From contig NW_027117346.1 in NCBI RefSeq assembly GCF_038025025.1, positions 1,240,001 to 1,304,000 on the forward strand: 64,000 bases of DNA. The letters are read 5' to 3'. Shown piece by piece: positions 33,252-62,638 of this stretch. The position numbers were made by a program, and so were the translations under genes. The stretch comes from Phyllosticta citribraziliensis (Eukaryota). How positions within the stretch are numbered: the stretch's first letter is position 1; the number at the start of each line of letters is the position of its first letter. The notes beneath the pieces are model-generated. The model worked only from the letters and a program-made list of their open reading frames with translations, made no database searches and was not told the origin of the DNA.

Positions 33252-36200
33252 ATGGCTGCGCCTCCGCCATGGCAAAGAGCTTGGGAACGAATCGAAAGGG
33301 AAAAGAAGGGCACCGTCAAATCGGAAGTATGGCGAGCATTCGAAACAATGGACGGGGACGAAAAAGCCCCGGAAAGCTTCATCCAACAGCTCAAACATGT
33401 GCGGAGTCAAGTCGACGAAAAATACTCGCCAAGATTCTGTCGAGCTGTCGAGCTTCTGGATCTCGTCCGGACCACAGGCGGACAAGTTGTTCAGTACGGG
33501 CCACAAACAGTCGGAATCGCATTCACGGCATTCAGCTTCGTCTTTGAGTTTGTCACAGCCGACAAGGATTTGTGTGATACAATCAGCATGACGATTGAGA
33601 GTGTCATCCATTGGATATTCCTGGGTGAAATCTTCACGAGAAGATACAGCCACGAGATCGAAGATGCGTCGAGCCGAAGCAATGCCCAAGAGCTGGCAAA
33701 CGCAATGATTGAGGGGACAATCGATCTTTTTGTCATAATCCTTGAGATCTGTTTGAAAATTGTTCGCTTGAAGCTCAGATATGACGCAGAAGCTACTAGC
33801 GATGATTCCAAAGACAAAGATGAATCAGTCCCTTGGATCCGTACCAAGTGCCGTGTAAAGAAGACCACGGAGCGAGTATCCAACTCGCTTTTCAGACGTG
33901 TCTTGGCTTTCTTCGGCAAAGGAAGTGAAATCCAGGGGATGCTGGAATATGGCAAGGAGAAGCTTGCTGTGTTGCAGCGAAACGCTGGTTTGAGCTTCCA
34001 AGAGATAGCTGAAAGCCAGCTCAAGGATCTCAAAAGAGACATCCAGGACCTTCCCCAAAGACTGCACAGGGCTCTGGACCCATTGCAAGAGAGTCTCAAC
34101 AGAGTCGAATGGACGGTCATGGAAACCAAAGCGAAAATGGAGCGAATGGAGAGAAGACTCGGCCAAGATGAGTTCAACGAGAATCTTCTATGGCTTCAAT
34201 CGGGTACCGCGCTCCCCATTGCGCAGCCTCGCGACCGGCAACGCGAGTTGAAGCCTGCTGCAGGAACCTGCGACTGGATTTTCAACCACGAGAGATATCA
34301 ATCGTGGAAATCAAGCAAAGCACACGTATGTTGGCTTTTTGGAGAGGCTGGAGTAGGAAAGTCCTACGTCACATCCTCAGTCATCGAGAAGTTTGTAGAG
34401 GAAAACGACGATTCCCTTGTTCTCTCCTTCTTCTGCCAAACAGGAAGCGAGTCATCTAGCAGGTGTAAATATATCCTGCTTCATCTGCTGATTCAGCTAT
34501 TTCGGAGTTGCACAGCGCTGGAGCCATACGAGGACCGTAGGGAATGTTTGGAGATCATCAAAAGAGCGAGATTTGGCCAAGGCGGAGACGAGTATCGAGA
34601 GAAGATTCAAAGAGAAGAGAGAAAGCCTAACATGATGTTGATGGAAGAAATCCAAGCCGCTTTTTTTGGCTTGCTGAGGGTATTCCGAAAGAAGGTCTTC
34701 ATCATCGTGGACGCTTTTGATGAGTGCATCGATCCCAAAGCTGGTGGACTAGTAGATGCTTTGGTCGAAAAACGAACACCGAAAGGACAGCAGAATGTCT
34801 TCCTGTGGATTTCAAGCCGACCTGAGGATCACCTGAGAGAGGTAGCGGACAAGGGGATAGCGGAAGGACAGTTCAATGTGGTTGAGATGAAGACAGAAGA
34901 CAACGATGACAACATTCGCGCATATCTCAAAGCCGCATTCAAGGAGATGAGCCACCTTCCGCAGAATCGACGAGATCGAGCTCAAAAAATCATTCTTGAA
35001 CAATCCCGCGGTTCATTTCTACGTAAGAAAACATTCCGATAACTGAGCAGTGGCTAATGAATGCAGGTGCGAGCACGGCAATCAATGCCCTTTGCGGAGA
35101 GAAGGCCATTTTCGATATCATGCAGGCATTGGACGACTTACCGATGGACATGAATCGATCATGGCAGCAAAAATGGGAGAGCCTCTCCCTTTTTCAAAGG
35201 AAATGGCTGTCGATTGCCTTCCGTTGGCTCGTACATGCCTACGGGACTATTACCACGACACTTATTGCGGATGAAATCGAAAAGAAATATTACCATCGGC
35301 TCCAGGAAGAGCAGGAATTAGGAAACGCCGAAAATGACAATCCAGACCAGCGGATTTCCAAAAGCGATGGTGAAGACGATGAAATCACCGAAGAGACAAT
35401 CGTCCTGCAACCATTGGAGCGTCCGTCAATCAAAGCCTTGAGGGAATTCGCAAGAGATTTCCTGGAGTTTCATGTGCCCGACAGAATTCAGTTGAGGTCT
35501 CGCGATATACGAGATTGGCTTCTGGATGGCAAGAAGGAGGAATATTATGAAAGTTCTCGGCACTGCCCAAGGTGTTCGGGACACATGCAGTCCGCTTCCA
35601 TTGAGGAGGTTGTGTCCAAAAATGGCTCACTTGGGATGGCTTTATACATCCTGCGAACCATCAACAACAGGGAATTCCAAAAGGAGCATCTTTTCCGCTC
35701 TGGCATTGAAAATGAAGATTACAACATGTTTATGGACGAAAAAATGTATCCCGACGGTAATGTCCTGCTGCAGGATTGGTTCACATCTACAGCAAGCGAC
35801 AAAGCCAAATCTTCGAAAGCTACACAAGGCCACAAGGGGGGTCAAATCGGCGGGGCCAAAAAAACAAAACAGTACCATGATACGCTTTCAGTGGTCGAGG
35901 CCGAAGCAACAGACTACGCATCCGATGCAGGCTCAGAAGATGGTGCACTTATTGCTCAGATTGCCCACTTGGATTATTTGGAAGGTCCTCCGGACAACTT
36001 GAACGAAGATACGGGGCCTCGCTACGAGTTCTACTATTGGGAGGCTCATATGAGAGATGCTGAAGAACAGTGGCGGCTCGACGAGCGGACTTCAAAGGAC
36101 TGGGATGAGTTGTACTCTCTCGCCGAGAAGTTCTTGGATGGACGTTCGCCAGCCTTTAGAGCCTGGATGAGGGAGTATGTTACCGATCAAACGAGGCCTG

Positions 36201-38595
36201 TGACATACGACGTTCGTCTACATGATGCAGCCGGATACGGAATTGTCGGTTTGATGGACAGGTTCATCGACCAAGGCGATAGCATGTCAAAAATGATTGA
36301 CGGCTACGGAACACCTCTCCATGCAGCTTGTCGACAGATTGAAGGAGAGCAACGTCTGAATATAAATCAGTACAAGGAAATTTTCGACAGGTCCAACTTC
36401 GCAATCAACATTCAAGAAGTTCGAGGGGAGACACCCGTTTTTCTTCTTGTCAAGCGAAGAGCTCCACTGGAGATCATTGAACTTATTGTCGAGAAGTATG
36501 GCGCAAGACTCGATATTCCACTACGGTGGAGGAGGGATTTTCCAATACACTGGGCTATCGTTCACCCAGATGCTGGGGTGTGTCGATACCTATTGGGACA
36601 ACCGGATTGCAGTCCAAATGTTGTAGACCAAGAGGGGGAGACGCCCCTTCATTGGCTTCTCCATCTGCACAACGCGTCGCCTCAGATTGCGAAGATTCTC
36701 ATCGATCACGGAGCAAATGTTTGCGCAAAGGACAACCAAAACCAACAACCCTTGTACGAGGCTGCTCGAACTGATAACTTCGTCATTGGGGAAATGCTCC
36801 TTCAACACAACGCATGCGTAGACGATATCGAGAACACCAGGAATTGGACTGCCCTACACCAAGCGGTGTCCAAAGGACACGTCGATTTCGTCAACATGTT
36901 GCTCCGACATAGTCCAGGCCCAGACATCACACTGGAAGACAAAAGATCAAGGACAGCGCTGCACTTGGCGGCCAAATACGGCCACCAAGAAATCCTGAAA
37001 GCAATGCTGAAGTACTTAGCGGGCAGCCTGCAAGGGAACGCTGAGGAAGGTCCAGCAAACAGTGATCGCGAAACGCAAGCGCATCCTTATGATGAGATTT
37101 TGCGGACTGAAATGGACAGTGGCGATAAGATCAAAGCGCTTTTGGAGAAGCCAGATTATCGCGGCAACACTCCCCTCCATAAAGCAGCTGCGTATGGTCA
37201 TGTTGACTGTATGAAGCTCATCATCGGAATCGGAAACGCGAAAGAGTTGTGCTCAATGAAAAATGACGTCGGCGCTACTCCACTCCACTTGCCCATCAAA
37301 GTGCTTCTACACTCAAAGCACGATCTTAGAAAAGACGTCGACAAGGCCCAGTCCAGTCACAACGGGAAAATAGACGGGGAACATATCAGGAGTTGCATGC
37401 AGCTCCTCCTTAAAAACGGGGCTGATCCAAATGCACAGGATAAGAGCGGTAAGACCCCGCTTCGCCTTGCCGTGGATGCAAAAGACAGTCGGTCTGTTCA
37501 GCTTCTTGTACTCGCAGGTGCGGATCCGATGCAACCGGTCTGCTCCAGTGATGAGACCACAGTTCTTCAAAAGATAGTCGAGCCTTGGAGAGACCAAGAT
37601 ATGACGTCAAACGACAACGAAGAACTCGTCAAAGCCCTCTTGAGGAGTAGCAAAAAGCTTCCACAGGAGGTCTGCGTCAACATCTTGAACATTGCTCTGG
37701 AGAGGCGCGCGGTCGAGGTACTGAAGAGCTTCACAGCTCGCTTTGATGACAAGGATCAACATGGATGGTCAATACTCGCTTTAGCAGTCCAGTTCCGGGA
37801 AGGGTCGCTCATTGACCGCATCCTCCTTCCTCGGCCTGAAAGCTACTTTCCAAAATGGAGTAGTACTGACAGACACGAAGATGTCATCGTCTCTGAAGAT
37901 GGAATGGAAGTTTCTTGCCCTCGATTGAGAGAGGAGCCTCAAGGCGAAGGATGTCGAGCTGTGCGAGCCGACTTTCCAATTCCTCCGGGGGTGGATCGCT
38001 ATTACTACGAGATTGAAATCGTAGAGTGTGGATCGATTGGGACGACTGAAAGGTATGAGGAGTCTCGATAGCGGCGCGGAACTCCGCAAAGCGAAGGCCT
38101 TGGTGCCTTTGAGTGTCTTTTAGCTAACATGAAGTTGCAGCGCTATCGGTGTTGGATTCGCCTCGCAATTCTTGCGCCTCGACACCATGCCCGGCTGGAG
38201 TTCTCCATACCAGTCATGGGGATACCATGGCGATGATGGCCACAAATACGACAATATGTCCATAATCGAGGATGGTCATCCATACGGACAAGGAGACACC
38301 GTCGGGGCAGGTGTGGACTTTGCGAACCGGGAAATCTTCTTCACCAAGAATGGCAAGAGACTGGGTAAGTTATCTGCATCCCGGCGCCTGGATCTGTGTA
38401 TTCTGTGAAGCTAACAACTCGGGACTTTGTGCAGGGACCTCGTTCTCTGGAGAAAATGTAAAGGGGAAGCTGTTTCCGATGGTTGGCTTCCACGCGTGCG
38501 GGGTCAAGATTCGTACCAATTTCGGGACGCGGGAGTTCAAGCATCCAGTCGACTGGTGCAAAGTACAGCCGGCAGGTGAGGCGCCGGCTGCGTAA
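33252..38595 (+). CDS. NLR-like STAND protein: N-terminal helical domain + NACHT + ankyrin repeats + C-terminal SPRY; introns 35023-35066, 38053-38140, 38365-38434
   Basis: GTCDWIF, Walker A WLFGEAGVGKS, Walker B FIIVDAFDEC, ISSRPE. About 10 ankyrin motifs (GTPLHAA, GETPLHW, WTALHQA, RTALHLA, GNTPLHKA, GKTPLRLA). SPRY motifs VRADFPIP..YYYEIEI..MPGW..SWGYHGDDG..GDTVGAGVD..IFFTKNG..LFPMVG. All three introns keep the frame. Confidence 0.9.
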
Positions 38596-41500
38596 AACGT
38601 TGACTGTATTTTCGGAAGAACTATCAATGGGCAGATTGTGAACAGGAGTCGAAAATGGGAGAGGGCAGCCGTGATTCAATGCGATGGCCGCCCTGAACTG
38701 GGAAGGTAGAATAGAAACGTGAGCGAAGTTTGTTTCCTAGTTGATTGCCCATTCGCAGGACGATTGCAGTAACAGCTATTCAGCAAAATAATGGACTGGA
38801 GTTTGGTCGTTCAGCTGTGTGTCTTTGTCGAAATTGATTACACATTTTTTGCATCCAGCCATGAACTTGAATTCTTCTATGCGCCGCCGGACATGCCCTC
38901 TGACTTTCAAGTTCTGATACCCGCATCTACACTCATTCTGCTTTCATTCTACCCCTCCAATGCAGTCTCAGCTTCTCAGTTGGAAGCTTCTCCAGGCTCT
39001 GGAGGCATGACGACAATTGTAAATCAAAATATAATGCAAGATTTTGGTCTATTGCTCCACGTACGACCATAGCAGGTAGAAAACTCGGAACCCCGTCCGC
39101 TCTTCCATAGATAAGCTACCTTACGGCCGATTAGTAGTTGCGTGGGTGACCAGCAGCGAATCCCGGCTGTTGTACGTTTTGCATTTTGTTTTGGTGGGTC
39201 AGTGTTGATTGAGGCTGTGGGGGCGAAAGGGGGTTCTTCGGCTCAGGGGTAAGCGAGGACCGAGGATAGCCGACGACGAGTCGAAGAAAAGTCGTGGCCC
39301 ATGCAACGACAAACAAGCGAGCAGATAGGGAGCATTCGCACGCTTCGACGGGCGAGTGAAGGTGAGATAGTACAGCTCAATTTAATGGAATTCTCTTATT
39401 TTGTGTGCCATGGCGATCCAACCTCGGGCGGAGGGACTGCTCTTTTGCAGTCAGATTGCTGAGTTGTCGGCTTGTCCTCTTCTCTACTGCTCCAGTCCAG
39501 AAGTGTTGGGTTTTCTGACCATGTTTCGCTGTTGAGGCGACCTGGACGACAACGTAAAGCGACTGGTCTAGTAACCAGGGAAAGCGAGGAAGCTTCTAGT
39601 ACACCCTCCCTATGCGTCAAAATGTCAAGGGAAGGATGCGGATTCACTGCCACTGACGTTACAGCCTCAACACTTCCAACTCACGGAGGACTACTCCGAC
39701 GGCAACACGGGACTCCGAAAGACCAGAAAGAAGTACGACAGGACAAGAAGCAATGATTCCGTCGCCCTCAGGGCAACGGACAAGGCGAAAAAACAAGCAG
39801 GCAAAAGGAATCCGGTTTCACTTACCTCTGTGCCTTGGCTCGACGTGATGACGATGACGATGATATTTTTGGGCGAATCGATTCCTGCCTGTCGGCTAGG
39901 TGCTGACGCTACCGATGCATGGAGCATTTGAATTTGTGCGCCAGCTTCCGACTGACAGTTTGCGAAACGTTGATGTCGAGGATGAAAGCTTGTTGACGAG
40001 GTGATGATGTGGCTTGCCGGTCAGCACTTTGTTCTTGGGGTGCATGGTGGCGTCATTAGATGATGCCCTTTGCTGCAGGCCTTGATTTGGCATCTTCCTC
40101 TTTTGAGATGGAACAAGGAACCAAGGAAACAAGGTAGAGCGGGTGTGGCGCAAAACGAGGCGGAGAGGCGGCGGTGTTGCACGCGGCGGCTGCGAAGCAT
40201 GCGAGGGCTCCGTTTACGCGTCGCGTCGCCACGGCAGGGACTTGTTCAACCGTTCCAACGAGCAGCTGTTCCTACCGCATACCATGCACTCGCCACTGCC
40301 GAGATGCATACAGTATCGACCATGGAAGGGATCGCGCACGCGTGTGGTACCGCAGACGGGACAGCACCGCCCGTGTGCCGAGATCAAACACGCGTCCGCA
40401 GGCGGCAGCGTTTCGTTTGGCTTGCGCGGCTCCGATTGCAGGAGAAACAAGAAACGCAGGTGAACTCGTCGCCTCGCAATTTCCATCGGCATGAATCCTC
40501 GGCCACGTGTCCCTGTTGAGAAGGTGTCCGAGGCGAGGGAGTAAACAAACGGGTGGTTGCGTTGGCGGATATGGCTTCGGAAGGAAAGGGGCGTTGCATG
40601 TGCGGGGTCGCGTGCTGCGAATAGCACTGCGGCAAGGGACAAGATTGTGAATGAGTGATGAGGTTAGCCTGTCCGTGATTGAAGACAGAAGTGGTGGGAC
40701 ATGTGATAGCACCAACAAGTTTGATGAGGAAGAGACAGAGCTAAACAAAAGATGATTTTTGGAAAAAGTGAGGGGCAATTGCTGGGTGTTGCTTTCGATC
40801 TGAGCGTCCCGGATCGTTGAACATTTCCCGGCCGAACGCCTGCAGGGTGCGAAAGGGTTGAGGTCGAGCATGATGCCGATGTTTCTGTTTCGAGAATTGC
40901 AATTGCTCGAGCGGTGTGCTTGGGGAGTTAATGCGCAGCGTGCGAAGCGGAGGCCAAACCAAACAAGGTCGGAACGGGCAATGTCTAGGGGAATTCTGCC
41001 ATGCCCGCGAGGAACTATCCAAGATGTGTTCCTGACCGGTGCGACAGCTCATCAAAAAAATTGAGGCGTGGAGGCGATTCGCGTCGGCGCTTGGAGGACA
41101 GTTGGCTGTGGCAGTGATTGTTGACCGGTACTCCATTCCCTGCCACGTCTCGACGCTAGCTGCAGGGGCAGAGGGCAGAAGAAACCGACCCGGCAGAGTG
41201 GAAAAAGAAAAAACGGCCACTGTGCTTTTCTGCAAGTCATGATGTCGTGTCTTGCTCCACTCCCGCCGGTCGGCTCCACGACAACCCATACACCGCCTCA
41301 TCGATTGCTGCCCGTCTCTGAATCCGTGAATCTGTGAGGCTGGGAATGTGGTCTGTCCTTTGTGCCTTGCAGGCATGGAAAGTGTGTGTCTTGGTTGCTC
41401 GAGGCTTGTAGAGTCGTGCTGGTTCATACATATCTGGTCGCGTTTTGTGGCTTCCATGGTAAAGTAAACAGAGAACGCACAGACCAGCTTCTCAAAAACT

Positions 41501-41720
41501 ACGGAAGGAACTGTCAGTCTCGCACAACACCATCAATAAGGTTTGTCTTTCATGTTAGAGCACCAATTTTGAGATCGTTCTCTGTTCTTTTAAAATATTA
41601 CCCCCATATACTCTCGAGTTCCCGCATTCTTTCTGGAAGATCCAGGGGAAGGCTGTTCCGCCCAAAGCTCCAAAAACATGACATTGATATATTTTAAACA
41701 TTGTACCTTTCTCAACAACA

Positions 41721-41809
41721 TCTTCGATGGTCTAGTGGTGATGATTTCCGCTTGTCATTACAGCGTAGTGCAAGCGCGGGAGACCGGGGTTCGATTCCCC
41801 GTCGGAGAG
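41721..41809 (+). tRNA. tRNA-Asp(GTC) with 17-nt intron (41758-41774)
   Basis: Acceptor stem TCTTCGA/TCGGAGA plus discriminator G, D-arm TGGTCTAGTGG, anticodon arm TCCGC-TTGTCA^C-GCGGG, T-arm CGGGG-TTCGATT-CCCCG. Confidence 0.95.
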
Positions 41810-42450
41810 ACCGTCCCAACTCGTTAGATTTGGCTGTTGTTTTGCTTTTTGTTGTTGGAGTGGATAACCTGCATTTTGACAATTACCAGGAGTACCTTCT
41901 GCAGGAAGTGGATTCTGCAATGGAAGGTGGTCTGTTGGAGTGACCGTCCTAGCTAGTCCCTTCGACTGGGTTTTCTTTTTGTCGCTTCACTTTGTCGGAG
42001 TGAAGTGGACTTCCTGCCCCCTGACGTCATATCTCTTTGGTAGGAGCATCCCGGTCTCTGTAAGGGCAGGAGCCAGGATATGCGAAGGGGAACCGCGTCG
42101 TGCTTCGAGTAGTGTTCGCATTTTCACCCCCTGACTACTCCAAGAAGAACTACCAATTCAAAGTCCATTTGTCATTCGTCTTAGTGGACGATTTCTGAAG
42201 CGTCTTCTCGCTAATTGCCCAACCACGGCTGAACAGCTGTCTGCCAGGGTTTATTCCATGCCGGTTAAAGTTAGTTGCAGGTGCAACAATCATGATTGAG
42301 AATCGACTCCCCCGAAACTTCTACACTGGAAGTCACGCCATGGACGTTGGACTGTCCCTTCCCGACCTTCTCTGTTCTAGCGCCGTGTGGTTTCCTCTGC
42401 CGCCAGGAGTCAATCTGGCATGACATCTTCACGGCGTCGAAGTCCTCGCC

Positions 42451-44573
42451 ATGACACAACATTGCGGCCCAATCGCTGAAAATGCAGCATTACTGTCACT
42501 GTTTCCTCCATTGGGGATCTTAGAGCCAAAGGTCACATATCCGATCCCGTCACAACGCCGAGACTCTGCGCATCCGTCCAAATACGTCCTCTCATTGAAG
42601 GATGAAACACGATGTGCCCAGGCATTCGCCATCTTGTTGGCGGATTCAATCGATCCGGATAGAATCGGAGCAGTATGCATCGAAGAGGAGCCCGTGGGAG
42701 AGGGCCTCACGGTTAGGATCGCTTCCAATTCGGGATCCCAGTTGAAACGAGTCGATCGCTTGCAAAGAGTTGCGGACAAGTTGAAGCATGTCTCAATGAC
42801 AGGTAAGTCATTTCAAATCCACATGTCCATATGTTGATTGGACTGCCAGAGGACATAAGCACTCAGATCTACAAGATGACGGGCGAGATGATTGCTATGT
42901 TGCAAAACCGACTACTTAGCCGCCTAGGATCAAAACACGCGGAAGGCTGCAAAAGATTTCGCAAAAAGCCAATCCTGCCGAAGCTAGAGTCTTCTATGCC
43001 GCATCTAGACAAAGCAGGTTGCCAATCAAGAGAATACAAGATTTTCTGCAAATTTGCCCGATCTTTGGTCGATAAGTTCAACGGATTAGAACATCTTTCT
43101 CATGAACATGCACATTCGGCTAGAGGGGGGGAATTCATACACGAGATTCTCCTCACAATCGAAGAGATGCTAAGATCTGTTAACATCTCGTCCATCCTGA
43201 AACCGATTCCAAGGAATGTGGATTCCTGGAGTGGCGATTCCCGCGAAATGCTTGTCGGGAGTCTTGAAAAGCTCGTCCAGCACCTGGCCGCAACTCGAGA
43301 TCTGGTTCGTATGGCACAAAAATACGCTGTAGTCCGGAACATCAAAGTAGAGCAATTGCCCAACTCGTCCTTCCCAACAAGCACACGAAGTGCTGAGCCA
43401 ACTTCCGTCGACAAAGGATTTCTTCGGCGCTGCATGCCAGACGAGGACAAGACACGACGTGTCAAGAGTCTGCGCAGGCTCGAATTACGTTGGAAAAAAC
43501 CTGCGATGGTGATCAAAAGGGAGGCCGAGGACCGCGCAAGAGAATCCAAAAAAGTCCACGCAGAGATCCAATTGCTGCTCTACTACGAACAGCGTCCCGA
43601 AATCGAGAATCCGCCGCGGGTCGTGTGCTCCAGCAAATACGCGTGTTTCCTGTGCGACTTGTTCATCAAGACCCACAAGGGCCTTCACACTCCTGGATCC
43701 CACGGGCGATGCTACCCGAACTGGAGGCTCCCGATGCCTGAGGAACTGAACCTGCCTGAAAGTTCCAAGTTGAGATACTTGCAGTGCTTGGTCGACTTCA
43801 ATCAAGAGCTCGAGCTCCAAATCCAAAAACTTCTGCGGCAGAATCCGACCAAGAAGATGGCACAGCCCGCGGAAAGTATAATATACAATCCAGGATCGAT
43901 TACACCGTCGACTTTGTCCGTGAAAGAAAAAGTCGGGCTGGGAGAACATGCAGATGTACCTGGAGAAACCGACTGGGATCTGCAAGTTTTGCGTACTACA
44001 GAGTCTTTGAGGACACCGGTGCCTTCCGAAATAGCCAGATCGTCTGGAGTCGTGGCAAGTGATCCGTTGGCACGAATTCAGAGTCAGAATGCGCTGCCGA
44101 ATACCGGGATGGCTCCAGTCCAGACACTCATCGACTCAACAGATTCAGTCGACTGTAGAAGCAGTGTGACAGTCATGGGAACATGTACTGCACACGAGAG
44201 TCCGGAGCAATTACATCAAATGCGCTACGAAAGACCATTAACTGTGGTCTTTTCTCCTGGTTCGTTGGCACGCTTCCACACAAGCCGAATCCACGTGGAG
44301 TTGAGCTATGATGACGCCATATCTCTTGCATCAAGCGTTTCGACATCTGAGCCATCTGTTGATACCCACGAGTCTGACGTAGTGGTACGAATTGAATGGG
44401 TCCACCCTACCTCCTGCAGTGTCCCAGAGACCAACTTCGACCTCGGTGTGCAGTGGAGCCGCATGCATGTTCATAGAGACACTCTATCTGGAGAAACGCG
44501 GTTCGCACTGAGCAAGGCTGATGAGATGCTGGTCATAAGTGCCAAGTCTTGTTATGAGGGGCATCAGAAGTAA
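42451..44573 (+). CDS. OTT_1508-like nucleic acid/nucleotide deaminase (about 690 aa); intron 42803-42849
   Basis: KVHAEIQLLLYYE...PRVVCSSKYACFLCDLFI...SHGRCYPNW fits the HxE..SKxxCxxC Zn-deaminase signature. N-terminal LSLKDETRCAQAFAILLA..GAVCIEE..LTVRIASNSG; canonical GTAAGT..CAG intron in frame. Confidence 0.85.
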
Positions 44574-49826: not shown

Positions 49827-52800
49827 TCAGCTTGATGAGCGGCCAGACAGGCAGCATCGACCATAAACCAGCGCGCGTCAATATCGAGCATGTTTCCGCT
49901 CTCACTCGCTCCGCGTCCCTCTCCCTGCCACGCGAGGTCTTTAACGCGCGAGAATAAGGGACAGGGAAAGGGAAAGCAAGGCGGGGTAGGCAGGCACGGT
50001 GCTTTACGCGCGAGAAACGCGACCGCGGTCAGCCAGCCAAGGAAGCAAGGTAGGAGAGAGCTTGTTTGGTGGTTTGTTGCGGCCGTTGCACGAATAATGG
50101 AACCAAGCAGAGTCGCTTTCTTGTCTTTCTGCCTTGTACTACAGTGTGTACAGACAGATGAGTGCGCATGTATGTACCTGACCGCGTGCGCGTCTACTGC
50201 CTGGGCAATGGGTTCGCATGCAAGGTAAGGAGGTGAGGGTCCGGAAGCGTGCCCTGACCTGAGGCACGAGGCCCCCCTTCCTCTTTCCTTCTGTCTGTGA
50301 CACATGTTCCTCTCCAAACCAGCCCGGCTCACGTTCAACCCTCACTCAGCTCAGTCTCAGTCTCGCTGCTGCTGTCGTGTTTGCAACTCCCAGTAGATAT
50401 GTACCTACCACAACGCCCTCCCGCGCGCACGCGCAAACGGAACTGCCCAACAAGGCAACCCATCCCGACCTCCTCCCCCCCCTCCACCCCACCTGACCCG
50501 GACGGAAACGCGGATACAAGCGAGCCCGGCCGCGGGGCGTGCATCCCGTTCGTTTTCGGAGCGGAGCGGAGCAAAGCAGAGCAAAGCAAGAGCCAGCCAG
50601 CAGTGCGCGAGCTGCTAAAGGGGTGTTAAGGGGTTGACCGCCTCGCCGGTCGGTCTGAGCCTCAGGCCGACAAGGCAACAGGGCGAAGACGGGGTAGAGA
50701 GAGGAAAAGAGGGGAACAGAGGTACACTGGGAGAGGGACTGGAGCTTAGGCAAGTTGATGATGTTGAGTCCTGACGTATGCAGGAGAGCAGAGCACCTTG
50801 GTGGTGATGTGCGACATTGGGTATATGTGACATCATGGAAGCTCCAGAGGACCTAGGTACCGTAGATCCCGCCATCCATGTCGCTTCCATGTGGCATTGA
50901 TGTCAGTGGTAGACACTACTGCTGCTCTTCTCTTCTCTGCTGCTTCCAGACTACTCCCGCCACTAGGTGATGATCCAATGGCGAATGCTGTCAGCAGCAA
51001 TGAAGTCGTCAACACCAAAGCTATGACACTTGCGTCGCGGGCGCGCATTGGCTGGAAGCTAGACTTCTCCGCTCTCCCACCCTCTGCTCAACCTCACCTC
51101 ACCCACTTCACCGTGAACATGCTGATTCACTTCCTCACACGCTCCCTGCCTCGGACCTATCCATTAACTCCATCTCAAGTGCACCACGCCCGATACTTCC
51201 GCTCATCCGCAGGCCGCCAAGACGCACTCTTTCTCTAAACTCCATTGCCCGCCGCGCTCTCCCCTCTCCGTCCCGCCGTCTGCATAGCTAATCCACGAGA
51301 GCCAACCACCCGACAGGTAGGAAAGCACGGCGGATACGGGCGGAGGCGGAGAAAGGAGGGAAAGGCAGGCGGAGAAGGGTGTTTGCACGACTCTTGCGAG
51401 CAAACAAAAGGGCTCGGCATGACACAATGCTCCGGTACAGCGGCGGCGGGGATGGAGCGCATGCACGTACACGGCGTGGACGAGAAGCGGAGGTGTCAGT
51501 AGGGGCCAAGCTTTGTTCGATTTGTGATGACAAAGTATGTATGGGGTGGTAGTAGCAGCGGGCCGGGGCGTGAGCGGAACGATGAATGACGGCGGGGTCG
51601 AGCCGAGTCAATTGGATTCGGGATAGACTTTCTTTGATGTCGGTCGTCGCCATGTTCGTCGGTGCCTCCGAAGGTGAGCTTGTTTGGTAAATCCGCTCTG
51701 CTGGCCTTGGGCTTTGGCTCTCGTCTTTGTTTCACTGACAAAGAGATGAGTTCGCCTCAACCCCAAGGCAACCTTCATCGTTCCCATGTGCTTTTTGTTC
51801 TTCAATCGAGGTAGACAACAAAACCGCAGTTCTTCTTGTAGAGCATCCGTGCCTCGGAAGACGACAGGACCAGACCCTGTGGCGCAGCCGTAAAGCCAAC
51901 CGCAGCCGTAGCAAGCCACAGCCACTCCCGCGGTATTCCTACCCACTGCCTGTACCGGCCGGGCCACGCAGGCTACTGGTGGCGCGGAAGCGTTTCGTTC
52001 CGCGCACCAGAAGACATCATCCCGTCTGTCAGTCTCAACTGTCCGGTGCTCAGCCAACATGCCAAAATCTGGCGCCGAGCCCGAAAGAAGGGCAGTCAAC
52101 AATCTTCCGTATTCGCTCCTGAGTGGACGATGTTTCCTTGGGTCGCGTACCGTCGGATGGGTAACTATATGCCAATAGGCACCGCCGAACGACGAGACAG
52201 ACGGAGACCGAGCTTACCGGCGCGCGCGTGTGCCTCGGTCGAGCAAATCGAGTCGGCTGCGTTCCGGCCGCTATGCAGAGCACCCAAGTGGCTTTCCATT
52301 CATTTTGCTGTCGTCGGCGTCGCCGAACCGTGGTTCAGCGCATTGGATTACTCACCTCCGATGCATGCCCTTTTCGCAGGCACGCTATCCATGCTCGCTT
52401 TGCGCCGGGTAGTATGTAGCCGCTAGTTCAGCGACGCCCGGCAGTTTCTGCCGTGCTCGTTCCTTTCGCATTCTCGTACCCTCCTCCGCTGTAATACCAT
52501 GGTCGGCAGATCAGGTATTTTGAGCATTGAGAGAAACGAATACGACGCGCGCGTGCCTGCGCTTGGCCTCGTGTGTGGCTTGCGAGGTCTTGGCTCTGGC
52601 TTGTTTGCTCGTCGATCATCAAAGGCGGTGTTCTGCTTGTTCCTGTCTGGCTTTCTCTTGTGGCTTTGATTTGCTTCGCTTTGTGTCAACATTGTTGCAC
52701 GGATCCATGTGGAGACGCTGAATGTGGTAGTAGGATAGGGAGAATGAGCATTCCATCTGTAGCAACGCACCGCGACGCACTCTTCATTCACTCCGGAATG

Positions 52801-55800
52801 GGCACTTGCGCCTCTGTCCAGGTGCTCCATTGTCCACGTGCAGCTGGCTCGATATCAACGAGCCTCCCTGCATACAAACGGGCAACAGAGATGCAGCATG
52901 TTCACTGTGACTTTTGCTCAACCTAAACCACAAGACCGCAGTGACTGACAGCTGCGCCCTACGCCGCACATCTGCCTGCGCAGGCGTAAGGTTTGCAGCA
53001 GCAGCATGTAGCTAGCCAGGGCAAGTGTGGGGAAGACGATGAGTTGTTCCCCTCGCCGTTCATGCACTGAATGCATGCTCTCTGCAGTAGTCAAGAAACT
53101 ACTAGTCGTTCTATGCCATGGCCCTGTGTGCACCCTCGCTAAACAAAATCTGCCTTACGGATACGCCTGACAGACTGGCAGGCACAACGCGGGACGAGCG
53201 TGCCGGAGGATCATTCGCGATTTTCCTCCTTGCTGCGCGCTCAGAGCCTCTGAGAAAGAAAGAGGGATGGCGGACAATTTCCCCAATACGGATGTACGAA
53301 TGGGATCGGCGCGCCGGGCAGATCATCAATCATCAACTGCGATCATGTGTACGGTATGTACGTGCTCTGCTCTGCTCTGCAAATCGATAGAAGGATATGT
53401 AGAAAGCACGGGAACAGAAGATTCCGGACAGTTGGGGGTCACGGGCCTATGCGCGCCTTGCCTTGCCCTGTCGGTTTGACGAAGCGCGCGTGCTGAGGGT
53501 TGATGATGAGGCGCGTGGTTCGCTCCTCTTCACTTCGTATGTCGAAACGAGAAATGAGGAAACGAGAAAGTGAGCACCGTAGCGAAATGCGCTCAACGAG
53601 AAACCGCAGAGTCATCGCCCTCATGCAATGGCTGTGTGTACAATCCAGCCAGCCCTACATGTCCGGCAGGCCTGCCTCGGCAAGCGAATCCGCGTCGCGG
53701 GCGGCAGGCAACCGGAAACAAGCGGTGACGGGATGACTATTCGACAAGGGCGTGTCAGCAGAAAAGAGATGCGATGCCGCGAAGCCGTGCTGCGCTGCCG
53801 CGGGTGACGGTCGGCGGGCGGCGGGCAGCGGGGCTGGCAGGCTAAGGCACGGTGCCCGGTGCCCACACTTTCTACGAATTGCCATGCCCTTTGTTCATAT
53901 TTTGCATGCCCTCGGTGTCAGTTTTCGCTCGCCACAAGTCGACGATGACGAGAATCAAAAGTGGTGGTGTTGCGGGGCGGGGAGAATTTGACCGGGCCGG
54001 ATTTGTGGATGTAGCGAGAGATGTTGCGAGACGGAGGCGAATCAGATCCATTTTTATTCGACTTTTTTTCTTTCCTTCTCTTCGTCTTCCCTGTTCTCTC
54101 TCACGATGAACGCTTGTTGAGCCTTGGTTGGTCAGTTTGCTCTTTAGTTGTTGGTGTTGGTTGGGACAGCGGCCGTGGGGGCTGCAATCTTTTGCTCTCT
54201 CCACAATTTCCGCCGTTCAACATGATGGCTTCGTCGCTGTGGCTTGTTGGTCTCAACGAGGGTCTCCGCGGATTGATTGCTCTCATCCGAAAGTCGCGAG
54301 AGACAGACATCAAGGTTCCCGCCTCGCGCGGATGCCGCTGCCGCTGCCGGTCAGGCAGTCACTGAGGACTGGCGAGATGCAGTCCAAACCCTGTGGCGGC
54401 GGGATGAAGAGTTTTCAAAAGGGCGTCCCGGATCACTTTCGACGCTTTTCATTATCAATTTCTTGTCCAGCAAAATTTTCTCGCCGTCTCGTCCCTGCCC
54501 AGCAACACCAACCGCGCCAGGAACCTTCTGCCCTGTACAGGGACGGGAGCTCGGAGCGGAGGCTGTACCTGGCGCACAGACCACATCTTCTGCGTTGCCC
54601 GTGCGAGGGATTGCCGCCATGGATCCATCCGCCATCGTGTAATCAACATCTTTTCGCTTCTTCGCTTTTCATCTTCATTTCTCATCCGTTTTGTCACGCC
54701 CGTGCGGTCGCTACTGCCCTTTCCTGCCCTCCACCCTATTGACTCTCCAAGCACATGCCCGCGCAGTCGAGTGCTGTGAGCAATTTGGGATCCGGGCGGA
54801 GCTCGGCGTTTGTCCAGTCCACAGAGAGCGAGCTTGAGGACCCTGCCTCACCTCCCGGCTGCGACCGGCTCGCACGTCTTCTTCCTTGTTGAACATCTCT
54901 CCCCCGGCTCTTCTTTGTCGTTGGTGGTTCGCCGCGGCTTTCGGCCGGCGTCCGGACGAAAAATGGCTGGCTAGATTTGTGCCCCGACGAACTTGACCAT
55001 GCCATGTGTCGAGTGCTGACATTTGGCTGTGTCTGCTGCACCAATTTGTCACTCTCCAGTCACCTTCTGGAGCGTTGTTGACTGGTTGGTTGGTTGGTCG
55101 TTTGCGGAGACCTGTTTGGCGCGGATGCGACCGCACCAACACCTGCGGTGGCCGGTTTCAGCACCTCGGCCTCGGCCTGTCAGCAACACTTGACCCTTTC
55201 ATCTCATCAATCAAGTCCGCACAACGATGCTGACACTTCTCCGCTGTTGTGCCCGATTAGAGAGACGACTCCCATCCATCGCACGCAGCTTGGGCTCGTG
55301 AATGCCCATCCAACATTTTCTGCCGGCAGAACCACCACCACATCCTTCGCCCAAAATAGCCACCACCACCTCCCACATGGCATGCAATCGAAACAGACCG
55401 CTTCTTCCACCAACCTCTCCCCCACCAACCAGCCTGTCAGCCAATCTCCCACACGACGCCTCCTCGCGATGCTACCCCACGGCCTGGAAAGCTGGCCGCA
55501 TCGCACCGCGTGGTCCACGGGCGCCGCGAGCCCCCGCGTTTGTTTCGCGCGGAATTACCATTTGTGGCAAAGCGACCATGGAGCCCGGGTAGACGGCGAC
55601 CTCTCCGCCAGCCCAGCCAGCCCACCGGGCTCTAGTTTTCCTGACGTGTGGGGGTTGTGGTATAGCAGAACGCCGACCCTTTTTCGCTACTTGTCCCTGG
55701 TAAACACTTCCAGCATCGTCACGGCGCCTTGTCATCAGATCGGTCAGGGACGAGGTGTGCGCGGGATCCCTTTCGCGATGTGGCATCCCACGCCTTCCCC

Positions 55801-58571
55801 CGAGTACTGCGACATCGGGCATGCTTCAGGTTGACCACCACTGCAGCACTCAAGTCTCGTGGCTGCCTGTTTGCCCTGCCCGTCTTCACGACGCGCGGAA
55901 CTAGGCTGTGGTGGGAGGCTCAGTTGAGACAGGCCTCGGTCAATCAAGTGAATAGGGCTATACGTACGAGTACGGGGAATATTTGTGCACCTATTTTGCT
56001 ACCTGTCCGCCCGTTAGCGAAGACGCCAACATGGGACAGTGCCACTACGGCTTCAGGGACCCTCCAAGATGCCGCGTGTGTGTCCTCGACACGAGGATTG
56101 TGTGCCTGGTGCACAGCTGCCGGGGATCAGCCCTCCAGCTGACTGCTCAGTGCTTCACAGCCGTGTCGCCGTTTTCCCCATCCAAGCGTCCCCAGCCCAT
56201 GTCCACCTCCACAGAGCTTCTCGCACTTGACCACATCGCCATCCCATCTGATCTGCTCGATGCAGTTCGTCATAGCCGTCAACAGACTTCAAGATCAGCT
56301 CCCGTCTGCATCTCATCTGCTCACGTTCTGCGCTTGGCCTACATCATGCTCGTCGATCTCCCGGAGTCCTGTCCACGACCACCCCGTCTGGAGGTGCCGC
56401 TTCCGGTAGGCATTGGCGTCGTTTGCTGGGAGGTGTTTGCTCCGCTGCAACTTTAATTGTGCTCTCGAGTCGCTGAGCTGCACAGTCTCGGCCTCTCCCC
56501 GTCCCGTTGGCCCGTACGAGTCAAACGGCCAATTTCCACCCTCTCATTTGCTGCCGTCATTGTTGCGCCCGCTACTCTTGCGTCATAAGCGTTCGTCGTC
56601 GACGCTATCATCCGGCCTGGACGATAACCTGTGAAGGGTTTTTTTTTTTCTGCCGGCAGAATCAGACTCGCGGTTGACGTTCTCCAGTTCTTTTTGTCGC
56701 AGAAAATCGGATGCTTTGCGATCCATGACGTACGTGTGCTGTTCGTTGACGCGCAGCACCAGGCAGATCAAGTTCGCAATCCACACCCACATTACCGAGC
56801 GCGACCAAGTCTCGACCGCGCAACCAACGGCGACGACAGGCCCAGCCCAGCTTAGCCTTCTGACTTCCCGCCCGCACGTGGCACTGGGCAGGTCCAGTCG
56901 TTTACTATTCATTCCCTGGAGGTTTCGTCATTTGAATGTCGACCTGATGCGACGAGTTCGCAATCAAGCTTGCGTCCATCCTTGACCAAGGCAAGCACCG
57001 TGGCCATCAAACAACCTGCCCTTTGTGGTATGCCCTGTCGCATCGGTCACCGAACCGCTGTCCTGGCGGAATGGTACCTCGACGGGACCCCTCCGCCCAC
57101 TCGCGGCGGCGGCCCGTACCTGCACGCTAGCACAACACGAGCTACCTGCCCTGACCACGAACCGTAATCTTGGATGGCTCTGTTTCGAATGCTCGGCCAA
57201 TGGTTCTCCGTTCGTTTGAAAGATGGCGCTCAGCAGATTCCGGACGCATCGCAGAATGGCCCAGACGGTCGGGCTCCTCTGCGAGATGCTTACTGCGAGT
57301 AAGCGGTATCAAAGCGCGTCGAAGCCGTATTGCGCTTTGCACCAGAGATAGCAATCGGTTTGTCCATGCTGCGGGCCGCAGACCTCCGTCTGGGGTAGGT
57401 ATTCGGCTTGTGTCTGCGCGGAGAGAAGAACGACGAGAGCCAGCCCGGGTCGTTGTCGCCCGATGCCATTCCAGCTCGCCTGAGTGCCCGAATGCTCGCC
57501 TGCTTGTTTGAGTGCCCGCGTGGTGACGTTGGAGTGCCGACCTGTTGCAAAGGCTCTGTGTGAAGTCTGGCATTGGATTCGTGAGTCAGGACCTGAGGCT
57601 GAGTTGAGATCTGGGGTAACGGAGCTCGGTTGGTACGTACCGCATTCGACCTTCTCTAGTTGAGGGCATGCCGGTCAGAGCTATCAGTCTGGCTCTGTAC
57701 CGTGGAGAGCGAGGAGTGGAGATTTGAGTGGCTCTTTTGTAACCTTGAGGCCAGTTTTCTACTCAGCAAGGCACGCACCAGTCAAGCAATCAACAACCGC
57801 GCCGCCTAAAACGATGGCAGGCTGTTCCGTAAGCCAGAGGAGCGAATAATGGCTGGAAATACCTGCCGGTGTAAAAGAGCTTGGGATGCGGAGTGAATTG
57901 GTTGAGTTCAAAGAGTAGGAAAAAATGCGGATGGGGAAAGACGAAACCAGCGTCGGGTGTAGTCATGGAGGCAAATGAGATGGCGCCAGAACGGGCAGGC
58001 GCTGCGTCGAGAAAATATGCGCAAAGCCCCATCTATCGTCTTTTCCCTACAACATCTTCATCACCATTCAAATTCGAAACAAACGCCATTTGATCCTTGA
58101 ACTTCGACCGTCGACGATTTCACCACCAGAGAGCTTCAGCGCACGGGCTTTCGATCGAAAAGGGCCACAAATTCGCGCCTTGGGTCCTGATCTAGGCTGG
58201 AGAGAATCGGACATGATGCTCAGCCCCAACTTTATTGACTCAAATAGGCTAAGCACCCCTGGAATCAGTGATGAGCGACCACATCAGCGTTGGCGATGCT
58301 TTGTCATGCCCAAAAATGCGTGTGGCTTCGGCAACTGACCTCTAACTGCCATGATCTCCTTTGGGGCCGAAATGATAGGACGGCGCCGCAAGAAGTCTGC
58401 ATGCGTGAATATCACAGTGCATGAATCCCCACCGACGGAATAGATTGGTTTGACCTTAACCAACGCTTTAAGCGCCTTCACTGATGTCTTTGCGCATAAC
58501 TGTCGACGGCCATCATTCAGAGAAACCTTTTAAATTCTCCAACATTGAGATCTAGGGAGTCTTGCTTGAAT

Positions 58572-61500
58572 ATGGGTTGGTGGGATGACTTCGCCAACAA
58601 TCTTGCCACGGACCTTGGTCCCCTCATCGCGCTCTTTGGAGAAGCGCCGACAAAACAGTACCTTAGCGAAACAACAATGCCGGAAGACATTGTCATTTTC
58701 GCAATGGCGCCTATTGGAATTCTAACTGCGGTCGTGTCAGCGATTCGTGTCTGCGGGTCACCGTCTCTACGGGCTTTCATTGGGCGAGCACAGGAAGGAG
58801 AAGGAAATGCGGAAGTCGAGCTCTGTTCTTCTACCAGCCGGAACGTTGGTGAATTGTACAACAACGGAGGCATCGCTCGTGTCTTTGGCACCCCGAAACT
58901 CCTCGAAATCATCTTTGATCCTGAAGCACTGAAAGAGGACTTTTATCCAAACTATTTCAAAAAAGCAAGTGCGGGAATCCATCTGCCGAGGGACTATTTC
59001 AACAATCTCAGGAAAGAATCAGAGTGGACCGAAAAAGGCACGAGGAGAGGCAAAAACACTGTGGAAGACGGTACCGAAACGCAACACACGAAAGACTTTG
59101 CGCCAAATCCAAATCTCTCTCTCAACGTCGGAATTCAGGAGCGTCCTAGGCCCTGGTTTTTGGTGGCTGCTTGCCTGGGAGTTACTCTGCAATGTGGAGT
59201 ATTGGTGTGGGCCGGTTTTTCAAGATACACCCTCCACCTCATTCAGAGCAATCCTACAGCGGAGTACGCTGTACCAATGACTGTCACTGGAACAATACTC
59301 GTGAGCTTTGGGGTAGGTCTATGCGCTCTATTGGTGGACAGCACGACTGGAGAACGACGGTTCAAGAGAAACGGAAATTTGACGAACTACCAATCTCAGA
59401 TGTACTGGATTCAACCAGGGAACCAGAAAATCGGCGATCAAGCTTTCGACTCATTCGCGTACACCAAAGACAAGAGTACATCAGAGTACATCACTTCATG
59501 GAAGAAGAAGCCGGATGGGATGGAAAAGAATCGTGTCGAAGCTTTGGTCTGGCTTGCCGTCGGATCCTCAATTGTTGGTTTCATCCTGCAATTTCTGGGG
59601 CTAAGAGCATGTCACTCGTCTGTGTCCGTAGCTCAATTGGGAGTCATGCTCGTGATGAGCATTGTCCGTGCGGGCCTCCGGACGCAACGGTTAAAAGACG
59701 AGCAAAATCTTATTGGCAAGGACTCGGACACCTTCAAAGGCCACGAACTTGATTGGCTCGCACTCCAGCTAGGAAGAGACGCCAGAAGCCAACGTAAATG
59801 GCGGATCGCCTATGTTGGGACCGACTATTCACAAGTGGCCGCCTTTTTTGGGGACAAAAACCGGAAGTCGCTTTGCATCGGGGAAGAGTACCAGTTGGTC
59901 GGATTTCGACCGACAGACACCAACCATGAAGAAGCCGGGCTGAATCATTTTCCAGAGGGATGGCTCAAGGACTTCCAGAGCACCAGAGAAGGATCGCCCC
60001 CGCATGATGCCGTCAAAACATTTCTTTATCGATGTCGACTGGCACGAATTACCGATCATTGGACAGAGGCCCTGGTTCCTGTGCGAGAGACTGCCGCTGC
60101 ACTAGCGAGAGCGATAGAAGGAACTGCCGACTTCATTTTCGCTGCTTACGACATCAAAGACGACTGGGACGAGGTTTATGCCATGTACTGGCCGATCAAG
60201 TGCGAGCTGCTGGGCCAGACTACCAAGCCTGGTGACGGAGCGATGGAGGTTTTCATCTCACTTAAACGCCATGTCGATTGGAATGGAAGCATCTCTGGAA
60301 ATTGGAAGGTAGATGTGCCCGAGCTGGAGGCGGTGCTTGGACTTCAACTGTTGGCATTGGACGAATACCGAAGAAGGAATCAATACGCAGAAGAAACGAA
60401 AAGCTCTCGAGAAATTCAGAGCATGCGGATTCTTTGGCAACTTCCCGACAATGCGGATTTCGACCTGCAATGCATGGAATACGACATGTGGCGAGAGAGC
60501 AGACAACCCAAAATCCGCAACGACGAAGTGGACCCACCATGGTCGAGAGACAAGTCCTCTCTACGGACCGAATCCATTCCAATGCCTTTGCGATTCGGTT
60601 GGCGAAACATATGTCAAAAGGACCAGAATTCTGCGAGAGTGCGCGTTTTGGCACTGCCCACAAACCTACCTCTTCCAAAACTCTGTGCACAAGACATGTA
60701 CTCGTCTTTTTTCATGGCAATTCTTCGCATCATTGCGGATTTGGAAGGTTATTCTTCTCCAGAAGGGCTTTGTTTGAAATGGGACATCATCTCACGGGCC
60801 CAAAACATATTCGGAGAGAGCGGCCTGGGCTCTGCGGACGACGCTTTAATATGTGCAGTTCCAGCTCTTAAACTGCAGAAGAAAACGCCAACCCCGCTCC
60901 ACGTTGCTGTTCAACCTCAATTTGTAGGCTGGAAGGTCTTCTTGGATCTCTTGGATATTCAAGCCAATCAAGATCCAAAAGTAAAAAACAGGGACACAAG
61001 CTCAGACGACCTCAAACAACATGAGAAAGTGGTCGATCTTCTATTGCGCAGAAATGTCGACGTCGATGCGAAAGATGACGACGGGCGCACTCCTCTTTCT
61101 TATGCTGCATATGAGGGGGCACCATCAATAGTCAAGCTTCTCTTGGACAATAAAGCCGATGTCAATGCAAAGGACGAGAGCTTTGGAGATACAGCTCTAC
61201 TAGACGCGTTGAAAGGCGATCCCGACTTGATCGACAGACGGCAGAGCCAGAAAGCGGACATCGTTAAACTCCTATTGCGAAGAGGAGCTGATCCGAACTC
61301 GAAAAACCACCGGGAGTTTACACCATTGCACTTGGCCGCAAGTTTCGGGAGACTAGACATCATTCAGGAATTGCTTGAGAGAGGAGCTGACCCGAACTCG
61401 GAAAACCATGCAGGGTATACGCCATTGCACGTGGCCACGGATTGCGGGGAATCAGACATCGTTCATGAATTGCTTGAGAGAGGAGCTGACCCGATCTCGA

Positions 61501-61862
61501 AAAACCATGAAGGGGTTACGCCATTGCACTTGGCTGTGAATTTCGGGAAAACAGACATCATTCAAGAATTGCTTGAGAGAGGAGCAGATCCAAGCTCACG
61601 AAATGACTCTGGACTGACTCCGTTGGATTTTGCACGAGAGTCTGGGGATACGAGCGCTATTGAGCTTCTAGAACGAAAACTGGGGATACGTACAGCGGTG
61701 GAAGAAGAATCCGACGGCGACTCGAGTTCGAATTCGAGCGATGCGGAAACGGATAGCCAGGGTGTGCGGTTGCCTGTCACTTCTTCAGACAATGGAAGGC
61801 AGAGTGCTCGCTTTCGTCAAAGTTCGACAACCCACGAGATCACCATCAACATCAGAACGTAG
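58572..61862 (+). CDS. Multi-pass membrane protein with C-terminal ankyrin repeats (about 1096 aa, intronless)
   Basis: N-terminal WDDFANNLATDLGPLIALFGE..IFAMAPIGILTAVVSAIRVCG..RAFIGRAQE..ELCSSTS; several hydrophobic segments (WFLVAACLGVTLQCGVLVWAG, GTILVSFGVGLCALLV, SSIVGFILQFLGLR); about 7 ankyrin repeats. Confidence 0.88.
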   Translation: MGWWDDFANNLATDLGPLIALFGEAPTKQYLSETTMPEDIVIFAMAPIGILTAVVSAIRVCGSPSLRAFIGRAQEGEGNAEVELCSSTSRNVGELYNNGGIARVFGTPKLLEIIFDPEALKEDFYPNYFKKASAGIHLPRDYFNNLRKESEWTEKGTRRGKNTVEDGTETQHTKDFAPNPNLSLNVGIQERPRPWFLVAACLGVTLQCGVLVWAGFSRYTLHLIQSNPTAEYAVPMTVTGTILVSFGVGLCALLVDSTTGERRFKRNGNLTNYQSQMYWIQPGNQKIGDQAFDSFAYTKDKSTSEYITSWKKKPDGMEKNRVEALVWLAVGSSIVGFILQFLGLRACHSSVSVAQLGVMLVMSIVRAGLRTQRLKDEQNLIGKDSDTFKGHELDWLALQLGRDARSQRKWRIAYVGTDYSQVAAFFGDKNRKSLCIGEEYQLVGFRPTDTNHEEAGLNHFPEGWLKDFQSTREGSPPHDAVKTFLYRCRLARITDHWTEALVPVRETAAALARAIEGTADFIFAAYDIKDDWDEVYAMYWPIKCELLGQTTKPGDGAMEVFISLKRHVDWNGSISGNWKVDVPELEAVLGLQLLALDEYRRRNQYAEETKSSREIQSMRILWQLPDNADFDLQCMEYDMWRESRQPKIRNDEVDPPWSRDKSSLRTESIPMPLRFGWRNICQKDQNSARVRVLALPTNLPLPKLCAQDMYSSFFMAILRIIADLEGYSSPEGLCLKWDIISRAQNIFGESGLGSADDALICAVPALKLQKKTPTPLHVAVQPQFVGWKVFLDLLDIQANQDPKVKNRDTSSDDLKQHEKVVDLLLRRNVDVDAKDDDGRTPLSYAAYEGAPSIVKLLLDNKADVNAKDESFGDTALLDALKGDPDLIDRRQSQKADIVKLLLRRGADPNSKNHREFTPLHLAASFGRLDIIQELLERGADPNSENHAGYTPLHVATDCGESDIVHELLERGADPISKNHEGVTPLHLAVNFGKTDIIQELLERGADPSSRNDSGLTPLDFARESGDTSAIELLERKLGIRTAVEEESDGDSSSNSSDAETDSQGVRLPVTSSDNGRQSARFRQSSTTHEITINIRT
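61281..61626 (+). repeat. Three and a half tandem 99-nt near-identical ankyrin-coding units
   Basis: Units start at 61281, 61380, 61479 and 61578 with AGAGGAGC(T/A)GA; the first three end GAATTGCTTGAG. Confidence 0.92.
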
Positions 61863-62533: not shown

Positions 62534-62638
62534 GGGTCTGTGGTCTAGGGGTATGACACTCCCTTAGCATCTGGATGGTCTACGATCACCTGGATCCTGA
62601 GCTGGGAGAGGTCCCGGGTTCAATTCCCGGCGGATCCA
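62534..62638 (+). tRNA. tRNA-Ala(AGC) with 33-nt intron (62570-62602)
   Basis: Acceptor stem GGGTCTG/CGGATCC plus A with the G3:U70 alanine identity pair, anticodon arm CTCCC-TTAGCA^T-GGGAG, T-arm CCGGG-TTCAATT-CCCGG, and a T-run terminator at 62643-62648. Confidence 0.95.

Follow-up and report, generated by a model that had tools for sequence, protein, structure and literature searches.

Does a fungal receptor gene that lies beside a deaminase gene act together with it, or do the two only share a neighbourhood? This question is raised by a 64-kb stretch of DNA, here called the window, which is assigned to the Dothideomycete Phyllosticta citribraziliensis, described in PMC9073689 as an endophyte with P. 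citrichinensis as its closest relative. Past a block of housekeeping genes, the window carries on its plus strand a gene for an NLR-type receptor with NACHT, ankyrin and SPRY domains (the NLR), a gene for an OTT_1508-like deaminase and a gene for a membrane protein with ankyrin repeats (Table 1). An earlier note on this DNA had read these genes as a sensor-plus-effector module that accumulates at tRNA-associated sites. Our analysis leads us, with moderate confidence, to another reading: the interval holds lineage-restricted, weakly codon-biased and fast-evolving genes beside a housekeeping block, and the three genes are most likely independent of one another. The identities that the earlier note gave to them (NACHT-ankyrin-SPRY receptor, OTT_1508 deaminase, transmembrane-ankyrin protein) are borne out by Pfam matches, Walker motifs and hydropathy, and all three are additional members of known families.

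A NACHT-ankyrin-SPRY receptor of known architecture

The domains of the NLR follow one another in the order helical N-terminal domain (residues 1-335), NPHP3_N/NACHT, ankyrin repeats and SPRY. Pfam matches were obtained for NPHP3_N (E 2.4e-27), NACHT (E 1.3e-06) and ankyrin families (down to E 5.8e-51), and SPRY was matched in the open reading frame (ORF) at 38133-38408 (E 5.6e-12), where it forms the C-terminal end of the protein and is divided by two introns. A Walker A motif, GEAGVGKS, stands at residue 364 and a Walker B motif, VFIIVDAFDE, at residue 482. The spliced translation is free of internal stops. With a Walker-bearing NTPase and a C-terminal repeat domain, the protein is a fungal NACHT-type NLR.

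We compared the gene models with assembled contigs from X1 and X2, two public runs of one coded organism that come from two studies, over 20 kb; the depth of these contigs is unfit for ranking expression, and assembled contigs cannot reveal partial editing. The three introns of the NLR gene (35023-35066, 38053-38140 and 38365-38434, all GT..AG) and the single intron of the deaminase gene (42803-42849) are spliced out in contigs of both runs. Contigs that lack exact GT..AG segments mark these runs as containing RNA, so both genes are transcribed and their splicing follows the models. A separate observation concerns the upstream side of the NLR gene, where one RNA-run contig of 8494 nt (about 30020-38716) spans the Vps35 region and the entire NLR gene, so that the transcription units of Vps35 and the NLR overlap or read through.

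The N-terminal 335 residues of the NLR had no Pfam match at E <= 10. Nearest to them in the protein atlas are DUF7708/Goodbye/NACHT_N clusters, at a score of 0.89 that lies below the 0.9 line and serves as a lead only. Exon 1 queried among longer proteins found no relatives, which is weak evidence, and two unspliced NLR ORF translations had no identical protein on record. The NACHT-ankyrin-SPRY order has already been described: a study of Sordariales NLRs reports 46 receptors that carry SPRY, always at the C-terminus and always with ankyrin repeats (PMC12258605). The window NLR has the same domain order, but it comes from a Dothideomycete, and thus stands outside the Sordariales; its N-terminal domain is without a Pfam match and no tandemly conserved ankyrin units were detected in it.

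An OTT_1508-like deaminase without the neighbour seen in the closest known system

The spliced 691-residue deaminase agrees letter for letter with the annotated P. citribraziliensis protein P0204 and matches PF14441 with 76 bits, against a curated cut-off of 27 (E 2.2e-21). Its HAE...CxxC centre, in which the second element reads CFLC, is encoded at 43557-43655. An alignment of 150 deaminase relatives shows no variation at H236, E238, K262, C265 and C268, and conservation of 90% or more at H284, G285, Y288, W291 and P294. The signature given for the OTT_1508-like clade in PMC3239186 consists of HxE, a K before CxxC and an H / aromatic-x-x-P loop, together with a helical insert in fungal versions; the window deaminase has the HxE, the K before CxxC, and the H with the aromatic-x-x-P loop. 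We predict that it is an intact zinc-dependent OTT_1508-like enzyme.

Hydropathy revealed no hydrophobic segments in the deaminase, which looks cytoplasmic. A structure model of exon 2 (predicted local distance difference test score, pLDDT, of 80) suggests that its N-terminal region is long and helical and its C-terminal domain beta-rich, and a model of the core alone (43404-43856, pLDDT 91.5) is largely helical with few strands. The best VIA match of the core model was to an unrelated chain (Z 4.0) and Foldseek returned no match at E <= 0.001, a mismatch that does not show a different fold. The exon-2 model matched no solved deaminase, and a PDB sequence profile search with the deaminase was also empty; judging from these models and searches, the OTT_1508-like clade seems to be without a representative solved structure. 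Bacterial members of the clade are described as toxin domains that are secreted and may or may not be accompanied by immunity genes (PMC3239186). Unlike them, the window protein is eukaryotic and cytoplasmic-looking, and it is modelled with the long helical N-terminal region and beta-rich C-terminal domain.

The closest known system to this deaminase is OLD-ZAO. In Neurospora crassa, OLD deaminases are reported to be antiviral A-to-I editors (Honda et al. 2025, via PMC12754623 and PMC13327615); upon virus infection, OLD edits the mRNA of ZAO, a zinc-finger gene next to it, at a premature UAG, with a strong fitness cost (PMC12754623, PMC13327615). OLD proteins are said mainly to target their genomic neighbours and to need cofactors, which are described as unidentified (PMC12754623). 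The taxa listed for OLD-ZAO in that source are Eurotiomycetes, Sordariomycetes and one basidiomycete, and Dothideomycetes are not on its list. In CHE1, the Fusarium homologue of ZAO, three C2H2 fingers are encoded downstream of the TAG that undergoes editing (PMC11169179). The reported antiviral role of fungal OLD deaminases (PMC12754623) makes the link to defence stronger than the earlier note had supposed.

The window deaminase resembles the OLD proteins in being a stand-alone OTT_1508-like deaminase of about 500-700 residues with HxE...CxxC, lineage-variable and fast-evolving. It differs from them in that no C2H2 gene and no TAG-interrupted neighbour lies next to it. A six-frame scan of all 64 kb for C2H2 fingers gave a single chance match, antisense within the NLR gene. 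Pfam found no zinc-finger domain in 96 ORFs of at least 90 residues between and around the genes, and the TAG read-through ORFs around the deaminase have neither coding-like composition nor domains. Although it belongs to the OLD family, the deaminase thus lacks the neighbour that defines the system; with no C2H2 ZAO gene next to it, any target it has would lie elsewhere in the genome. By analogy with OLD, we consider it most likely that the deaminase edits adenosines in a few mRNAs encoded elsewhere in the genome. Iyer et al. (2011) predicted cytosine deamination for the OTT_1508-like clade (PMC3239186), and given that prediction the enzyme may have a mutator role.

Weak codon bias and a narrow distribution

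All three genes have a low GC content at third codon positions (GC3): 0.541 in the NLR, 0.545 in the deaminase and 0.521 in the membrane-ankyrin gene, versus 0.59-0.90 in the comparison genes (Mann-Whitney p = 0.005). The comparison set consists of 13 ORF pieces from 10 other genes of the window, nine of them verified by Pfam and one by orthologues. Overall GC is 0.48-0.51 over the three genes versus 0.55-0.60 nearby. These values agree with the weak third-position bias that had been judged by eye.

The distribution of the deaminase is narrow. Of the Phyllosticta species that the protein collection covers, only P. citribraziliensis and P. citrichinensis yielded an orthologue; as a control, the cluster of the acidic protein encoded downstream of the deaminase gene indicates that at least five Phyllosticta species are represented in this collection. 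Beyond the sister pair, the next best match is 48% identical, and the named relatives have a patchy spread, in Zopfia, Emydomyces, Eremomyces and Sarcosagium. Between the two sister species the deaminase is 82% identical, versus 91% for the acidic protein and 95% for the membrane protein (residues 1-714). An accessory character of the genes is supported by their low GC3 and, for the deaminase, by this restriction to one sister pair and by its lower identity. What the locus offers here is an annotated "orphan" OLD-family deaminase in a Dothideomycete, confined to one Phyllosticta sister pair among the species checked.

A variable spacer was also seen. In contigs from a further organism (organism B), whose DNA is about 84-85% identical to the window, one contig skips 578 bp within 41843-42422, between tRNA-Asp and the start of the deaminase gene, so the spacer beside this tRNA gene varies between relatives.

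Searches for a link between the receptor and the deaminase

We looked for signs of a functional link in protein architecture, in the neighbourhoods of deaminase relatives, in shared motifs and in transcription. No fusion of PF14441 to NACHT or ankyrin domains was found among near-length relatives, 61 of 61 of which carry PF14441 only, and no longer, fused relatives of the deaminase were found, which is weak evidence. With a cut-off of E <= 0.001, a profile search of 1.84 billion representatives gave 2213 clusters; the best 150 of these span 183-949 residues, and the longest of those 150 (691-949 residues) again carry PF14441 only, in 19 cases out of 19. A metagenome pattern scan for deaminase loci produced 148 matches, two of which were relatives. 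One of them (L001), 32% identical to the window deaminase, lies on a 525-kb metagenome contig among genes for an aconitase, an FtsJ methyltransferase, a P450, a class II tRNA synthetase and COX15, and NACHT, ankyrin and zinc-finger domains are absent from all 14 ORFs of at least 150 residues at this locus. The other (L002) is 2.7 kb long, too short for neighbours.

No motif of the NLR N-terminal domain recurs in the deaminase, where the best local match has E 7.3, or in the membrane-ankyrin protein, where it has E 0.61. In NLRs of the NWD2/HET-S type, a short N-terminal motif matches the C-terminus of the effector encoded next door, and the two communicate by amyloid signalling. The window NLR likewise lies near possible effector genes, but its N-terminus is a domain of 335 residues and neither neighbour carries a matching motif. 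The 8- to 12-mers common to the upstream regions of the three genes did not exceed those of shuffled controls. The NLR and the deaminase are not bridged by any RNA contig; depth falls to 7-57 across 39670-41670, and the DNA between the two genes holds a 5S rRNA gene, a tRNA gene and about 2.5 kb with weak coverage. When the literature was searched for fungal NLRs together with a deaminase, only an unrelated paper came up, and the word "deaminase" is absent from the Sordariales NLR study (PMC12258605).

Weighing the readings of the interval

Several observations weigh against the independence of the genes and would fit a module in which the NLR senses virus or non-self and activates or licenses the OLD-type deaminase, with RNA editing or nucleic-acid mutation as the output. 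The NLR and deaminase genes lie side by side in the same orientation, with 3.9 kb between them; each has spliced contigs in X1 and in X2, and contigs of organism B are present on both. In P. citrichinensis, accession numbers follow the order deaminase, acidic protein, membrane protein, as in the window, so linkage has been kept at least in the sister species; linkage is the default for close relatives and says little about function. OLD deaminases are described as antiviral, as acting on genomic neighbours and as needing cofactors (PMC12754623), so that a neighbour-dependent role would not be absurd, and with the usual ZAO partner absent the slot for a partner is open. Two of the negative results also carry limits of their own, in that searches among longer proteins are weak evidence and L001 is the sole independent distant locus with flanks (n = 1). 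Against the module stand the lack of fusions in near-length, longer and longest relatives alike, the housekeeping neighbours of L001 and its lack of an NLR, the N-terminal domain that the NLR has of its own and that has nothing in common with the deaminase, the lack of common promoter words, the separate contigs with RNA polymerase III (Pol III) genes between them, and the empty literature search. The sensor-plus-effector module put forward earlier is thus unsupported, and we regard it as quite unlikely. Its more specific form, in which a ZAO-less OLD-type deaminase is functionally coupled to the adjacent NACHT-ankyrin-SPRY receptor and the NLR supplies the OLD sensor or cofactor, we hold to be very unlikely. 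If the pairing were true, it would give fungi their first immune pair in which an NLR controls RNA editing, would join NLR immunity to OLD-type RNA-editing immunity, and would point to the unknown upstream sensor of OLD.

Two further readings look to the DNA around the genes. The low-GC3 genes could be the cargo of a mobile element, or of an insertion that targeted 5S or tRNA genes, with the element since decayed. The dip in GC and the low GC3 would fit such an origin, as would the presence of the deaminase in one sister pair with scattered distant relatives, the 578-bp skip in organism B, and the short distance from each accessory gene to a Pol III gene, which is under 700 bp and for the NLR under 500 bp; tRNA-Asp is 642 bp from the deaminase ATG and the membrane-ankyrin stop is 671 bp from tRNA-Ala, matching the approximate distances of 640 and 670 bp reported before. 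However, Pfam found no transposase, recombinase or reverse-transcriptase domain in the 96 ORFs, direct or inverted flanking repeats of at least 22 nt and duplicates of tRNA fragments were not found, the interval includes a conserved core gene, and weak expression-linked codon selection would explain the low GC3 too. When placed at random in the window, all three Pol III genes fall within the 29.4-kb interval with a probability of 0.097, so the interleaving with tRNA genes is no more than chance at window scale. We therefore find no support for an accumulation at tRNA-associated sites and judge the cargo origin unlikely. Alternatively, the deaminase could act in cis like OLD on ZAO, but with the convergent non-coding transcript next to it (44.6-47.5 kb) or the ORF-poor RNA further downstream as its target instead of a zinc-finger mRNA. 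In favour of such a pair, OLD proteins are said primarily to target genomic neighbours (PMC12754623), a spliced transcript abuts the 3' end of the deaminase gene, and the ORF-poor region, which lies under RNA-run contigs at least up to 52999, is only 6-9% diverged from organism B versus 15-17% for NLR and deaminase pieces (listed pieces). Yet no frame of the 64 kb holds a C2H2 finger apart from the antisense chance match, no coding-like TAG-interrupted ORF was found, and the X1 and X2 contigs show only 1-2 A>G differences over 20 kb, with other changes equally rare and partial editing invisible in such contigs. This is the least probable of the readings, and we consider it very unlikely.

In the reading that we prefer, that of three independent genes, the NLR would be a self-contained receptor of known fungal architecture. 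Its helical N-terminal domain would serve in signalling and is probably Goodbye/DUF7708-like; the NACHT domain, with its intact Walker motifs, would be the switch, and the ankyrin repeats and SPRY would form the ligand-binding end. The deaminase, by likeness to Neurospora OLD, would edit adenosines in a few mRNAs, and the third gene would encode a protein that passes the membrane several times, ends in an ankyrin array and has no known function. That the three genes lie close together and close to three Pol III genes would reflect co-location in a region of low constraint and not a functional module. More generally, nearness of immune-like genes to each other or to tRNA genes needs a genome-wide control before a system is claimed.

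Layout of the window and its Pol III genes

The first 32.3 kb of the window hold housekeeping genes (RPL7, a Vps36-like gene, eIF3c, a DEAD helicase, Brix, Timeless, 3HCDH and Vps35), in agreement with the earlier statement that the housekeeping block ends at VPS35. On the plus strand after Vps35 follow the NLR, the 5S rRNA gene, tRNA-Asp, the deaminase gene, the acidic-protein gene, the membrane-ankyrin gene and tRNA-Ala; downstream of tRNA-Ala, a methyltransferase gene lies on the minus strand.

Table 1. Features annotated in the interval downstream of Vps35, with positions counted within the window.
Feature	Position	Strand	Details
NLR gene	33252-38595	+	Exons 33252-35022, 35067-38052, 38141-38364, 38435-38595; 1713 aa
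5S rRNA gene	39059-39178	+	Rfam RF00001, 81.3 bits, E 1e-15; very high contig depth in all runs
tRNA-Asp (GTC), intron ~17 nt	41721-41809	+	Rfam RF00005, 46.3 bits; anticodon read by eye
OTT_1508-like (OLD-family) deaminase gene	42451-44573	+	Exons 42451-42802, 42850-44573; 691 aa
Spliced transcript without convincing ORF	44600-47498	-	Introns 46293-46351, 44833-44923; CT..AC joints in RNA-run contigs
Conserved acidic-protein gene	47639-48412	+	257 aa, GC3 0.74; highest contig depth of the stretch
ORF-poor stretch, ~10 kb	48500-58400		GC 0.57-0.58; without Pfam-bearing ORF, without Rfam match
Membrane-ankyrin gene	58572-61862	+	1096 aa; Pfam ankyrin, hydropathy; exact protein on record
tRNA-Ala (AGC), intron ~32 nt	62534-62638	+	Rfam RF00005, 48.6 bits; anticodon read by eye

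Both tRNA genes with which the three protein genes had been said to be interleaved are real, but the 5S rRNA gene, between the NLR gene and tRNA-Asp, had been missed. With this extra gene, the dispersed Pol III genes of the interval number three, and all of them share the plus strand with the three protein genes. Nor are the protein genes contiguous, since 14 kb and a core gene separate the deaminase from the membrane-ankyrin gene. ARAGORN detected the tRNA-Asp gene alone and misread its anticodon. Rfam at a relaxed threshold found nothing in 38.6-58.5 kb beyond the 5S rRNA and tRNA.

The membrane-ankyrin gene and the stretch before it

The membrane-ankyrin protein has five hydrophobic segments at residues 40-369 and ankyrin repeats in its C-terminal 300 residues or so. 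Within the ankyrin array, three repeat units of 99 bp at 61281-61648 are 73-81% alike. The N-terminal 790 residues resemble unnamed ascomycete clusters of proteins 643-717 residues long. The P. citrichinensis orthologue (P0206, 791 residues) is 95% identical over residues 1-714 and then ceases to match, so that in this orthologue the ankyrin array (60714-61862 region) is either absent, broken or mis-annotated.

The minus-strand transcript at 44600-47498 has no coding-like ORF, with or without TAG read-through, and no Pfam match. It converges on the deaminase gene, whose 3' end it abuts, and diverges from the promoter of the acidic-protein gene. The 90%-identity cluster of the acidic protein includes P. 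citriasiana, P. citricarpa, P. capitalensis and P. citrichinensis, and by this measure of sequence conservation the gene is a core gene lying among accessory genes.

Downstream of the acidic-protein gene, unspliced RNA-run contigs cover 48956-50050 and 50311-52999 of the ORF-poor stretch (contigs were examined up to 52999). Together with its low divergence from organism B, this coverage suggests that 48500-58400 may be a conserved long non-coding transcription unit.

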